Assembly: GCF_000027125.1 (NCBI RefSeq)
Contig: NC_017626.1
Direction: 5' to 3' (one strand)
Origin: Escherichia coli 042
GTDB taxonomy: Bacteria > Pseudomonadota > Gammaproteobacteria > Enterobacterales > Enterobacteriaceae
DNA length: 64,000 nt
Positions 14,527 through 36,530 of the stretch are shown here, piece by piece (within the stretch, counting starts at the first letter, position 1; each line of letters begins with the position of its first letter). Under the pieces are notes generated by a model that worked only from the letters and a program-made list of their open reading frames with translations, did no database searches and had not been told where the DNA came from. Position numbers and translations under genes: made by a program.

Positions 14527-15731
14527 AAATTTCACTCATTTGTAGGATACAGAAAGCAATACAAAGCCCGCATAAACAATTAGCATTTATGTTGTGTAAT
14601 ATTTTTTGCCAGGCTTATAGTGTCTTTGGCAATGGGTAGCTTATTTTATATTTTTTGTATAAGGTCTCCTGTGAAAATTCTCTTTTCACATTATTTAAAT
14701 AAACAGAGAGCCAGATTAAATACCTGAGTATAAAATCTCTTCTGATGTTTAATTGATTTGAATGTTCGTAAGCTATATCACTTACTCAATCCATTTTACC
14801 CAGAGTCATAAAATAGAGTGTTTGTTGATCTCATTTTCATATTCCTTTCAGACTGAAGTGCGTTTTCATCACCCGATGAGAAAGAACTGAAGTGATGTTT
14901 GCCATAGATTGCAAGATGCCCTGTCTCATTGTCTATCGCGGTGCACCTTTATACCTGTTATACCAGATCAAAAATCACGCAATCCATACAACAAAACCAG
15001 ATTTGCAATTCGTGTCACAAAATATGTCGATCTTTTTCTAAGAGGAAGATGCCATGTGAAGCCAGACGAACACTTGCGGTGGTCTTCAAAAACTAAAGAT
15101 ATTCTTTTAAATATCTGTTTTATAAATAATTTATTTAGAGTCTAAATAAGGGAAGCTTTGTAAGCTAACTCAGTGAGCTTGGTGAAAATAAGTGTTTACC
15201 CGCCATCAGGCTTAGCATAATTCTCATCATGAAATATGTTTCCTGGTTTGTGGCTTGTAACTGGTCACTCCTGAAGCCGATCTGGAGAGGCTTGTTGATG
15301 TTGGTGTTTTCAGGGTGATGCCTCACTTAGTTTGTTTGCCGTATCGCCCGGCGAACAGCTGTGATTGAGGAAGGTTTAAGTCGTAGTGACCAAAGCCATA
15401 TTTACCAACGGATGCAGATGAAAAAATCGTTTCCTGCTTTCCCCCATATCTCCATGATAAAAAGGAATGTAACAATCTCATGGTCTAAACTGACGAACCA
15501 GCCAGGAATAATCGCTAGGGACCTAAGAATTAGCATGATAATAGCCACTAAGAAATTACTGCGTTCCATGAAATAGCCATTTTGTGGCAAATGGAGTTGA
15601 CTAATAATGTCATATGTGAGACGGCTAGTTGAGCGAATATTAAATTTTGCTGAATTTTTTATGTTGATTTTACTTGTTACAGAACATATCACATGATATA
15701 TAGATAAGATTAGTTGGGTAATGACTCCAAC

Positions 15732-16235
15732 TTATTGATAGTGTTTTATGTTCAGATAATGCCCGATGACTTTGTCATGCAGCTCCACCGATTTTGAGAA
15801 CGACAGCGACTTCCGTCCCAGCCGTGCCAGGTGCTGCCTCAGATTCAGGTTATGCCGCTCAATTCGCTGCGTATATCGCTTGCTGATTACGTGCAGCTTT
15901 CCCTTCAGGCGGGATTCATACAGCGGCCAGCCATCCGTCATCCATATCACCACGTCAAAGGGTGACAGCAGGCTCATAAGACGCCCCAGCGTCGCCATAG
16001 TGCGTTCACCGAATACGTGCGCAACAACCGTCTTCCGAAGCCTGTCATACGCGTAAAACAGCCAGCGCTGGCGCGATTTAGCCCCGACATAGCCCCACTG
16101 TTCGTCCATTTCCGCGCAGACGATGACGTCACTGCCCGGCTGTATGCGCGAGGTTACCGACTGCGGCCTGAGTTTTTTAAGTGACGTAAAATCGTGTTGA
16201 GGCCAACGCCCATAATGCGGGCAGTTGCCCGGCAT
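15732..16235 (-). CDS. insB: IS1 InsB (expressed as InsAB' by -1 frameshift)
   Basis: continuous 167-aa frame ...[39 protein letters not shown]... Confidence 0.88.
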
Positions 16236-16429
16236 CCAACGCCATTCATGGCCATATCAATGATTTTCTGGTGCGTACCGGGTTGAGAAGCGGTGTAAGT
16301 GAACTGCAGTTGCCATGTTTTACGGCAGTGAGAGCAGAGATAGCGCTGATGTCCGGCGGTGCTTTTGCCGTTACGCACCCCCCCGTCAGTAGCTGAACAG
16401 GAGGGACAGCTGATAGAAACAGAAGCCAC
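16154..16429 (-). CDS. insA: IS1 InsA
   Basis: 91-aa translation [42 protein letters not shown]... Confidence 0.92.
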
Positions 16430-16484
16430 TGGAGCACCTCAAAACACCATCATACACTAAATCAGTAAGTTGGCAGCATCACCC

Positions 16485-16654
16485 AGTTGATGCGCAACGG
16501 TACGATTATTCCAGCGAATAACACGGTATCGTTAGGAGCAGTAGGGACTTCGGCGGTAAGTCTGGGATTAACGGCAAATTACGCACGTACCGGAGGGCAG
16601 GTGACTGCAGGGAATGTGCAATCGATTATTGGCGTGACTTTTGTTTATCAATAA
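16485..16654 (+). pseudogene. fimH: fimH 3' remnant (C-terminal about 55 codons of type 1 fimbrial adhesin)
   Basis: translation ...RNGTIIPANNTVSLGAVGTSAVSLGLTANYARTGGQVTAGNVQSIIGVTFVYQ* immediately abutting the IS1 end. Confidence 0.8.
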
Positions 16655-16721
16655 AGAAATCACAGGGCATTGCTAATGCAGGTACGCAATATTACCTGAA
16701 GCTAAAAACCTGCACGTTAGC

Positions 16722-16775
16722 CCTTTGTAGGCCAGATAAGACGCGTCAGCGTCGCATCTGGCATAAACAAAGCGC
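16722..16775. repeat. REP element
   Basis: gtaggccagataagacgcgtcagcgtcgcatctggcat palindromic unit. Confidence 0.5.
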
Positions 16776-34076: not shown

Positions 34077-34116
34077 AATGTTAAGAATAGAGCCTGACGG
34101 CAGGATCGCGCAAAAA

Positions 34117-35349
34117 TCACCGCTCCTCCGCCAGCTCGGCAGCCTGATGTTGGCGCACGCGATTAAGCAATCCGGCCAGGGTGAAAACGACGATAACGCC
34201 TGCCACAACGGCTAACAGATGAAACGGCAAGCGACCGCTGTTAAACCACAGCCAGCGGCCGATTTCGACCGAGACAGACATCACCATCAGGATCACCATA
34301 TTCAGCGATGCGGAGACGGTCCCTTTCGGTAAGTTATTGGAAAACAGCGTAAAGCGGAATAAGGTCGGGAAAATCAAACCAATCCCGAAAGCATACAGAC
34401 TGGTGCCCAGCACCGACCACAGCCAGACGTGCGGTGACAGCAGATTGCCGATAATCAACAGCGCGAGGCCAACCAGTTGAAGGGGTACGGCACGCCAGAT
34501 AAAGCGCGGTTCGGTCGGATCTTTAACGAAACGCGCCACGATGGCATTCGCGACAATCACCGCGCCGAACACCGGAACCTGTGTCCAGGCGAACTGCGAA
34601 GTTGTTAAGCCGCCCGCGTCGATCAGGATCACCGGCGAGACAGCCACCCAACTCATCATGGGGATATAGCTTAAAGAGATGGTTGCTGCGCCAAAGAGGA
34701 ACAGCCGATTGCAAAAGACATTACGAAAATCGCGCAAGACGCTTTTGGCGCTAAATGGAACCGCGCCGCGCTTCACCGTCTCTGGCATCGCCAGCAGTAA
34801 GCCAACAAATGAGATAAAACCCATAACCGCAATGATGGCAAAAAGGACTTTCCAGTGCACAAAGTGCATCAGAGCTGCGCCGGAAAGCGGGCCAATAATC
34901 GGCGCAATCAGTACGATGGAGGTGATAATCGCCATCAACTTGATCCCTTTTGTCTGTCCGAACGCCTCCTGCACCGTGACATAACCAACGGTGGCAATAA
35001 AACAGATACTGGTGCCCTGAATTGCACGCGCGATAAGAAACTGTGTCATAGACGTTGTGAACATTGTCGCAGCGCAGGCAAGGGTAAATATTAGCGCCCC
35101 GGTAATCAGCACCGGCCTGCGGCCAACCCTGTCGGAAAGCGGCCCCAGCAGCCACTGCAATGCCATGCCTCCAGCGAGATAGAGACTGACGGCAGCCGGG
35201 GCCAGACTGACATCGGCATTAAAATCACGGACCACATTAATGATCCCTGGCTGGATCAGGTCCGTCGACAGATACGCAGCAAAGTCATACAAAATCAACG
35301 CCATCGGGAAAAACAGCGTGGCGGCATGGCGGGCAAAAAAACGTGGCAT
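34117..35349 (-). CDS. mdtM: multidrug efflux MFS transporter
   Basis: 410 aa from [26 protein letters not shown]... Confidence 0.92.
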
Positions 35350-35662
35350 AACAAACAACTCCTTGTCCGGAGAACCCAATGGGGAAAACGAAATTCAATA
35401 CCGTCGGTAATGACGAAAGGCAGGCGAGAAGGACAAATGTACTGAATTTCATGTAATCAACCACACTGCCTGCGAATACACAGACAGAGAAATACCTTCT
35501 GACTCCAGGTCAGAATGTATAACGATTACAAATAGTCATCAGCACATTACACCTCTTTAATTGATGGCTTGCATAGAAAATATACACCTTAAGTGTAATT
35601 AAAATTTGGTAATGCTGCCAACTTACTGATTTAGTGTATGATGGTGATTTTAAGGTGCTTGC

Positions 35663-35938
35663 GTGGCTTCCATTTCCATCAGATGTCCTTCCTGCTCCGC
35701 TACTGAAGGCGTGGTGCGTAACGGCAAAAGCACTGCCGGACATCAGCGCTATCTCTGCTCTCATTGCCGTAAAACATGGCAACTGCAGTTCACTTACACC
35801 GCCTCTCAGCCCGGTACGCACCAGAAAATCATTGATATGGCCATGAATGGCGTCGGATGTCGCGCCAGTGCACGCATTATGGGCGTTGGCCTCAACACGG
35901 TTTTACGTCACTTAAAAAACTCAGGCCGCAGTCGGTAA
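35663..35938 (+). CDS. insA: IS1 InsA
   Basis: 91 aa, near-identical to copy 1 InsA. Confidence 0.9.
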
Positions 35939-36359
35939 CCTCGCGCATACAACCGGGCAGTGATGTGATTATCTGCGCTGAAATGGACGAACATTGGGGC
36001 TACGTCGGTGCTAAATCACGTCAGCGCTGGCTGTTTTACGCGTATGACAGGATACGGAGGACGGTTGTGGCCACGTCTTCGGTGAACGCACTCTGGCCAC
36101 ACTGGAGCGTCTTCTGAGCCTGCTGTCGGCCTTTGAGGTCGTGGTATAGATGACGGATGGCTGGCCGCTGTATGAATCACGCCTGAAGGGAAAGCTGCAC
36201 GTTATCAGCAAGCGTTACACTCAGCGCATTGAGCGACATAATCTGAATCTGAGACAACATCTGGCAAGGCTGGGACGGAAGTCACTGTCGTTCTCAAAAT
36301 CGGTGGAGCTGCATGACAAGGTCATCGGGCATTATCTGAACATAAAACACTATCAGTAA
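35857..36359 (+). pseudogene. insB: IS1 insB, frameshifted
   Basis: frame splits into 35857-36117 and 36150-36359; alignment with copy 1 shows a 1-bp deletion near ...acggttgtggccacgtcttcggtg and an in-frame TAG. Confidence 0.7.
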
Positions 36360-36530
36360 GTTGGAGTCATTACCCGACAGCGAGGTGTTTAGTGTGCCAT
36401 GTCAGGCGAGAAATTCTATTGGATGAATCAAGTCCAACTTACTCATTGTCAATTTCATGGTTGATTATTCGAAACGTGATGCTATTTCCAACATCAACGC
36501 TATAATTGCAGAATAATTGTAGATACATTT

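Follow-up and report, generated by a model that had tools for sequence, protein, structure and literature searches.

The window analysed here is a stretch of 64,000 nucleotides from Escherichia coli 042 (assembly GCF_000027125.1, contig NC_017626.1), and our subject is a pair of copies of the insertion sequence (IS) IS1, which stand in inverted orientation on either side of the genes gntP to mdtM. Very probably the two copies lie near each other by coincidence: they differ in subtype and age, arose independently, and were each left behind by a separate deletion or replacement; the pair would be neither a functional unit nor a recombination switch. Copy 1 would be an apparently active element of the IS1A type that marks the loss of 8.8 kb of the type 1 fimbrial operon. 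Copy 2 would be older, of the IS1F type and transposase-dead, and lies on the mdtM side of the immigration control region, at the border of this hypervariable stretch. What varies in structure here stems from transposition-type events of IS1 and from recombination between identical copies. The elements are listed below, with positions counted from the first nucleotide of the window.

15717..16483, minus strand, 767 bp: IS1 copy 1, IS1A-type (terminal repeats and 99.3% identity to K-12 IS1A)
15732-16429, minus strand: fused insA/insB' transposase of copy 1 (both frames open, A6C frameshift site present)
35608..36374, plus strand, 767 bp: IS1 copy 2, IS1F-type (both terminal repeats intact, 99.0% identity to K-12 IS1F)

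A repeat search of the window returns a single long inverted repeat, broken by a 1-bp indel, whose arms (15713-16444 and 35648-36378) are 91% complementary. IS1 terminal inverted repeats occur in the window exactly four times (15717-15739, 16461-16483, 35608-35630 and 36352-36374), with none in 100 shuffles. The initial annotation had placed an inverted IS1 pair here, with copy 1 on the minus strand and copy 2 on the plus strand, and this is confirmed, except that the end given as 36375 should be 36374. A candidate solo IS1 end at about 36430 (CCAACTTACTCAT) was rejected: the resemblance is visual only, with more than three mismatches to the IS1 end pattern.

Copy 1 matches the degenerate IS1 end pattern with 0 mismatches at both terminal repeats. 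The A6C -1 frameshift site joining insA and insB' is TTAAAAAAC, and a 1-bp deletion lies in the leader that separates insA from the left inverted repeat. In strain PM7, where the region is identical, the counterpart is annotated as 'IS1-like element IS1A family transposase, programmed frameshift'. Judged by its sequence, the transposase looks intact and copy 1 looks transposition-competent.

Copy 2 has an open insA and an insB inactivated by a 1-bp deletion together with a TGG-to-TAG stop in frame; its PM7 counterpart is annotated as 'IS1 family transposase; frameshifted; internal stop'. By its ends and sequence it is a genuine IS1F-type IS1, but a defective member predicted to have no functional InsAB'. 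The K-12 IS1F (a type IV IS1 beside the fec operon) resembles it closely, with the same TAG stop in insB; the two differ in that copy 2 lies at the edge of mdtM and the immigration control region instead of at fecI-yjhU, and in its additional 1-bp insB deletion. We count 73 sites that distinguish K-12 IS1F from IS1A-type IS1. A published count likewise gives K-12 IS1F 73 mismatches to the consensus IS1, and such non-consensus copies transpose extremely rarely (PMC12428005).

Each element sits where DNA known from K-12 is missing. The flanks and the bracketed segment compare with K-12 MG1655 as follows.

15117..15716, no strand: outer (left) flank of copy 1, nanC-fimB intergenic; K-12 homology stops at 4540693, 264 bp before fimB
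16484..16654, plus strand: last 171 bp of fimH (3' remnant); K-12 homology restarts at 4549540, inside the gene
16828..35349, no strand: gntP-mdtM core genes (17 named), 97.3% identical to and collinear with K-12 4549922-4568790
36375..37167, plus strand: non-K-12 DNA right of copy 2, with brnT (36558-36845) and brnA (36832-37134)

K-12 positions 4540694-4549539 (8,846 bp, from fimB through most of fimH) are therefore absent, and copy 1 stands in their place. The left end of copy 2 adjoins K-12 4568790 exactly, 271 bp upstream of mdtM. To its right, K-12 homology restarts only at the yjiA stop codon (about 37168), and the K-12 immigration control region of approximately 19 kb (rpnD, yjiR to mcrBC, hsdRMS and mrr) is replaced by copy 2 and brnTA.

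The copies are 19,124 bp apart, and the whole unit measures 20,658 bp. Between them lie the fimH remnant, the small open reading frames (ORFs) ytiD, idlP and ytiA, and 17 named genes (in order gntP, uxuA, uxuB, uxuR, yjiC, iraD, hypT, iadA, yjiG, yjiH, kptA, yjiJ, yjiK, yjiL, yjiM, yjiN and mdtM). The earlier count of 17 core genes is thus correct, with the qualification that yjiC (22365-23115) is a pseudogene here: its longest ORF has 192 amino acids versus 276 in K-12, and it is frameshifted in the identical PM7 DNA. The segment had also been described as being in K-12 orientation relative to both flanks, and blastn bears this out, placing segment and flanks on the same strand and in the same order as in MG1655. 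Over the 24 kb around the pair (14000-38000), many complete E. coli chromosomes (e.g., FORC_031 and PM7) match the window at 100% identity, and the gene order in PM7 is nanM, nanC, IS1, a 171-bp 'fimbrial protein' fragment, gntP through mdtM, IS1, brnT, brnA and yjiA.

Neither copy has a target-site duplication, as the initial annotation had said: comparison of the flanks found no duplication of 8-10 bp at either one. Over 9 bp, copy 1 is flanked by GATTAGTTG and CAGTTGATG, and copy 2 by TTAAAATTT and CGACAGCGA. The motif AGTTG is present on both sides of copy 1 (15712-15716 and 16485-16489; TAGTTG against CAGTTG, five of six bases), but this match is too short and too offset for an IS1 duplication and is probably due to chance. 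The duplications are missing because each copy is the end-point of its own deletion or replacement, and at copy 1 the absence characterises the insertion event rather than the element. Insertion sequences without duplications have been attributed to adjacent deletions or to recombination between IS copies, and such deletions grow stepwise (PMC11708052).

Carriers were counted in a sample of 5,426 complete E. coli genomes, which is the scope of all genome counts given here. Paired 100-nt probes (E <= 1e-30) covered the four junctions: nanC / IS1 (J1L), IS1 / fimH' (J1R, fimH' being the remnant), mdtM / IS1F (J2L) and IS1F / brnT (J2R). The intersection of a pair is the number of places minus the number of genomes, and the four resulting equations agree within 2.

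Outer junctions, J1L + J2R: 1,115 genomes, 1,418 places
Inner junctions, J1R + J2L: 553 genomes, 801 places
Copy 2 junctions, J2L + J2R: 1,115 genomes, 1,559 places
Copy 1 junctions, J1L + J1R: 361 genomes, 662 places

J1L is accordingly present in about 303 genomes, J1R in about 358, J2L in about 444 and J2R in about 1,115, the last being one fifth of complete E. coli. At copy 1, the fimH-side junction is constant (approximately 358 genomes) and the other side varies; at copy 2, the brnT-side junction is constant and the mdtM side has at least two forms. About 303 genomes, from a wide range of hosts and countries, have both outer junctions, and none of these is inverted. The inner intersection (248) is below the outer one (303) because some strains have other DNA to the left of copy 2. 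Strain 4973 is an example: it has both elements in native order, and the DNA left of its copy 2 is a dienelactone hydrolase fragment. The spacer of approximately 260 bp between mdtM and IS1F (window 35350-35607 versus positions 7660-7955 of the locus taken from 4973) thus exists in two unrelated forms among carriers of the IS1F-brnT junction. It is K-12-like in the window, and in 4973 even the first mdtM codons differ.

Strain SK1144 (positions 22974-24424 of the locus taken from NZ_AP018784.2) illustrates the variable side of copy 1. Its IS1 / fimH' junction is that of the window, but at the opposite end its IS1 adjoins DNA matching window positions 1 to approximately 380, so the counterpart of window ~380-15716 is lost, a further deletion of approximately 15 kb that takes defence genes together with nanS, nanM and nanC. 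Relative to the window, the copy 1 deletion of this strain is larger and nested. SK1144 has a different immigration control region and is without copy 2.

One fixed and one variable junction without a duplication is the expected footprint of an IS1-associated deletion, and both copies show it: each has no duplication, lies at a deletion end-point and has one constant and one variable junction. The deletions would have arisen either by transposase-mediated adjacent deletion or by recombination between directly repeated IS1 copies, and these two routes are indistinguishable here. We infer the order and mechanism of the deletions, taking the anatomy, subtypes, end-points and junction counts as observed, along with the lack of inverted junctions and of chimeras. 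An ancestral simple insertion in fimH (the 5' side of fimH, a 9-bp duplication and an IS1 end) had no match in the sample. The IS-associated deletions described in PMC11708052 are similar in that they have no duplication, one flank contiguous with the reference and the other displaced, and include nested deletions sharing one junction. They differ in that they come from an evolution experiment, whereas those at this locus are natural and ancient, with intermediate states not found among the 5,426 genomes.

An inversion bounded by IS1 does occur at this locus in a relative, strain 720632 (positions 5760-13563 of the locus taken from NZ_CP025842.1, corresponding to window 29339-36374), but it does not involve copy 1. 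There, two identical IS1F-type copies in inverted orientation enclose a flipped 6.3-kb piece that runs from a yjiJ fragment to mdtM (window 29339-35607), giving the order brnTA, IS1F-type copy, 168-bp yjiJ fragment, yjiK to mdtM reversed, second IS1F-type copy and the rest of yjiJ. Both copies have a dead insB, and they differ from copy 2 of the window at 2 bases. The target is the following.

29339..29347, no strand, 9 bp: IS1 target of strain 720632 in yjiJ, GCAATCCAC on the window plus strand and GTGGATTGC on the other

The sequence GTGGATTGC is found once at each copy in 720632, in inverted orientation. The event was either an intramolecular replicative transposition of copy 2 or a simple insertion followed by recombination between the identical copies, and it implies that the dead copy 2 element was mobilised in trans. 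Inversion with duplication of the IS by intramolecular replicative transposition is known for IS1. It has been described for IS26 (PMC4471558). Strain 720632 fits this pattern with its identical inverted IS1F copies, the 9-bp target once at each and the flipped 6.3 kb between them. The comparison has two limits: the same product could come from insertion and then recombination, and the event belongs to a relative and is absent from the window. It is possible, though we hold this tentatively, that IS1A-type elements still mobilise the transposase-dead copy 2 in trans and recurrently remodel the edge of mdtM and the immigration control region through duplicative inversions (as in 720632) and adjacent deletions. 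Genomes with both copy 2 junctions but not in native adjacency number at most about four (444 versus 440).

Aligned with each other, copy 1 and copy 2 are identical at 698 of 768 positions (90.9%), with 68 substitutions and two single-base indels. Ten stretches of at least 25 bp are free of differences, the longest of them measuring 51 bp. These repeats are above the minimal homology for recombination and far from identical. A crossover between them would invert the segment, and on this point the initial annotation had the geometry right. Such an inversion, although geometrically possible, would be disfavoured by the identity of 90.9%, by identical blocks of no more than 51 bp and by mismatch repair editing. 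Published figures put the minimal homology at about 30 bp and the effect of MutS at 60-fold, and a divergence of 4% is reported to cut chromosomal recombination 1000-fold (PMC2327257). In the phage lambda assay of the same source, the RecABCD pathway was approximately 100-fold lower at 22% divergence than with identical sequences, with no drop at 4%. The size of the penalty between the copies is thus something we estimate, and at 9% divergence it may lie anywhere between modest and several orders of magnitude. The initial annotation had allowed that divergence might prove too high for recombination. This holds in part: at 90.9% identity, RecA-dependent chromosomal exchange would be depressed, probably strongly, but not necessarily abolished.

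The elements also carry a record of whether a crossover has happened. A reciprocal crossover inside them would make both copies chimeras with a single switch between IS1A and IS1F states. Copy 1 has the IS1A state at 69 of the 73 diagnostic sites, the IS1F state at two isolated sites and neither state at two. Copy 2 has the IS1F state at 68 sites and the IS1A state at five, which are isolated and never adjacent. Neither copy has a switch point across the 73 sites, and therefore no crossover between the two has occurred in the ancestry of this genome.

The inverted arrangement was sought in the population with probes of 1,200 nt, each made of 600 bp from two flanks, and the halves of a match were joined if they lay within 1,100 bp on one strand. 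The results were as follows.

Native copy 1 (nanC flank + fimH' flank): 307/5,426 genomes
Native copy 2 (mdtM flank + brnT flank): 440/5,426 genomes
Inverted (nanC flank + reverse complement of mdtM flank): 0/5,426 genomes
Inverted (reverse complement of fimH' flank + brnT flank): 0/5,426 genomes

The two native probes serve as a positive control for the probe design. The inverted junctions are absent from the 5,426 genomes, and the best matches to both inverted probes spanned one half only.

These results bear on the idea that the pair recombines via RecA often enough for cultures or populations to hold both orientations of gntP-mdtM. The inverted-repeat geometry is right for it, identical blocks of up to 51 bp exceed the minimal homology of roughly 30 bp (PMC2327257), and the IS1-bounded inversion of part of the segment in 720632 indicates that inversions here are tolerated. 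If flipping were frequent and near neutral, however, both orientations would be expected among the approximately 303 carriers of both elements, and none of them has the inverted junctions. Further points against it are the low identity, the absence of chimerism in either copy and the partners of the sole inversion observed here, which are two identical IS1F copies rather than copies 1 and 2; we consider the idea improbable. Known inversions between inverted IS or rrn copies in E. coli have the same geometry as this pair, but their substrates are identical or nearly identical repeats, unlike this pair with its 9% divergence and 0 inverted isomers. In the closest genomes, a query with two IS1 copies has at least 38-40 matching places per record, so copy 1 presumably has many near-identical IS1 partners elsewhere that would suit recombination better than copy 2 does. 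In a genome of about 4.8 Mb that holds a few dozen IS1 copies, it is unremarkable to find two within 20 kb, and half of such pairs would be inverted.

Some considerations weigh against our reading of the pair as two independent scars. Finished assemblies reveal only the fixed or majority orientation and are silent on isomers present in culture at, for example, 1e-6. The approximately 303 carriers are closely related at this locus (many are 100% identical over 24 kb), so they sample a modest amount of evolutionary time. The lack of any reduction at 4% divergence in the lambda assay makes the penalty at 9% uncertain by orders of magnitude, and the ten identical blocks of at least 25 bp leave RecA-dependent exchange possible. 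Finally, the stepwise deletion history is a reconstruction, since no genome keeps the presumed simple insertion in fimH. Even so, the earlier description of the locus as a likely site of structural heterogeneity divides in two: IS1-driven differences between strains are real, but inversion isomers between copy 1 and copy 2 were found in none of the 5,426 genomes, and neither the predicted isomer nor the mechanism proposed for it is supported.

The missing duplications could also be explained by a past inversion of this or a larger segment involving these copies, possibly followed by re-inversion, and recombination of IS copies with one another is among the accepted reasons for such a loss (PMC11708052). 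This predicts that the halves of each duplication would lie on opposite elements as reverse complements. When the outer flank of either copy was compared with the reverse-complemented inner flank of the other, there was no match, only 3/9 and 4/9 bases agreeing. Both copies are moreover pure subtypes, order and orientation are as in K-12 on both sides, and the deletion or replacement end-points already explain the lost duplications, so a past inversion is very unlikely.

That the 20.7-kb unit is a composite transposon like Tn9 or Tn1681, which arrived or can move as a whole, has next to no chance of being right: two IS1 elements with intact terminal repeats do flank the segment and the copy 1 transposase is apparently intact, but there is no duplication around the unit, its outer flanks are unrelated, its passenger is native core chromosome collinear with K-12 at its own position, and the two elements differ in distribution (approximately 303-358 versus 1,115 genomes) and therefore arrived separately. 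IS1 composite transposition also drops steeply with length. As the origin of the unit, a composite transposon is effectively refuted. Possible plasmid copies were considered and rejected: the junction probes gave 2 places on 'plasmid' records, and PLSDB has only very large records with surrounding chromosome, which points to mislabelled or chromosome-derived replicons and not to transposition of the unit. The 'plasmid' records with the region are 0.37-4.9 Mb and carry chromosomal neighbours too. PLSDB entries carrying the whole region include AP026530.1 / NZ_CP128951.1 (655 kb) and CP054241.1 (834 kb), among others, and in the 655-kb record the region holds an extra 9.8 kb or so with IS66-family genes.

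Our reading of the pair as two separate scars involves nothing new in kind: the elements and mechanisms are known, and the loss of fim through IS1A has already been published. In clades B and C of sequence type 167 (ST167), the fim locus is replaced by IS1A, with consequences for bladder colonisation and for FimH-targeted interventions (PMC12405470). At the level of the locus the two cases agree: each lacks the type 1 fimbrial genes and has an IS1A-type element in their place between nanC and gntP, and ST167 and the strains matched here belong to the same broad group of phylogroup A clinical lineages. The ST167 report describes a complete replacement, whereas here a 171-bp 3' remnant of fimH stays, and the junction is found in about 303-358 complete genomes from many hosts.

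Three other features of the window are worth recording. A defence island lies between prophage-like genes and nanS. Three large consecutive genes at 930-10329 match defence models: an SNF2 helicase matches DrmD (E 5e-198), and a methyltransferase and a restriction enzyme, each of Type III, match with E = 0. After them, at about 10991-11631, come fragments whose annotations name an HNH endonuclease and a phosphorothioate-dependent restriction endonuclease. Downstream of yjjV, a 101-bp unit is repeated in tandem at least 4-5 times with 96% matches (63478-64000), and the array runs past the end of the window. Its unit contains a palindromic sequence (GCCGGATAAGGCG...) like that of repetitive extragenic palindromic (REP) elements, and the array is probably a bacterial interspersed mosaic element (BIME) or REP array. 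The gene tsr (40915-42579) is intact here, with an ORF of 554 amino acids, and is annotated as frameshifted in PM7.

For the interpretation of similar loci, we recommend checking the identity and subtype of the copies before calling an inverted IS pair an inversion hotspot, and we note that missing target-site duplications usually signal IS-associated deletions, not inversions. The removal of the type 1 fimbrial operon by IS1A in a widespread phylogroup A lineage is relevant to FimH-directed drugs and vaccines (PMC12405470). To this the present analysis adds modest detail, namely that the fimH-side junction occurs in about 358/5,426 complete genomes and the IS1F-brnT junction in about 1,115/5,426. 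If copy 2 is mobilised in trans, then in the one fifth of E. coli with this element the locus would be a hotspot of structural change driven by transposase, not by recombination.

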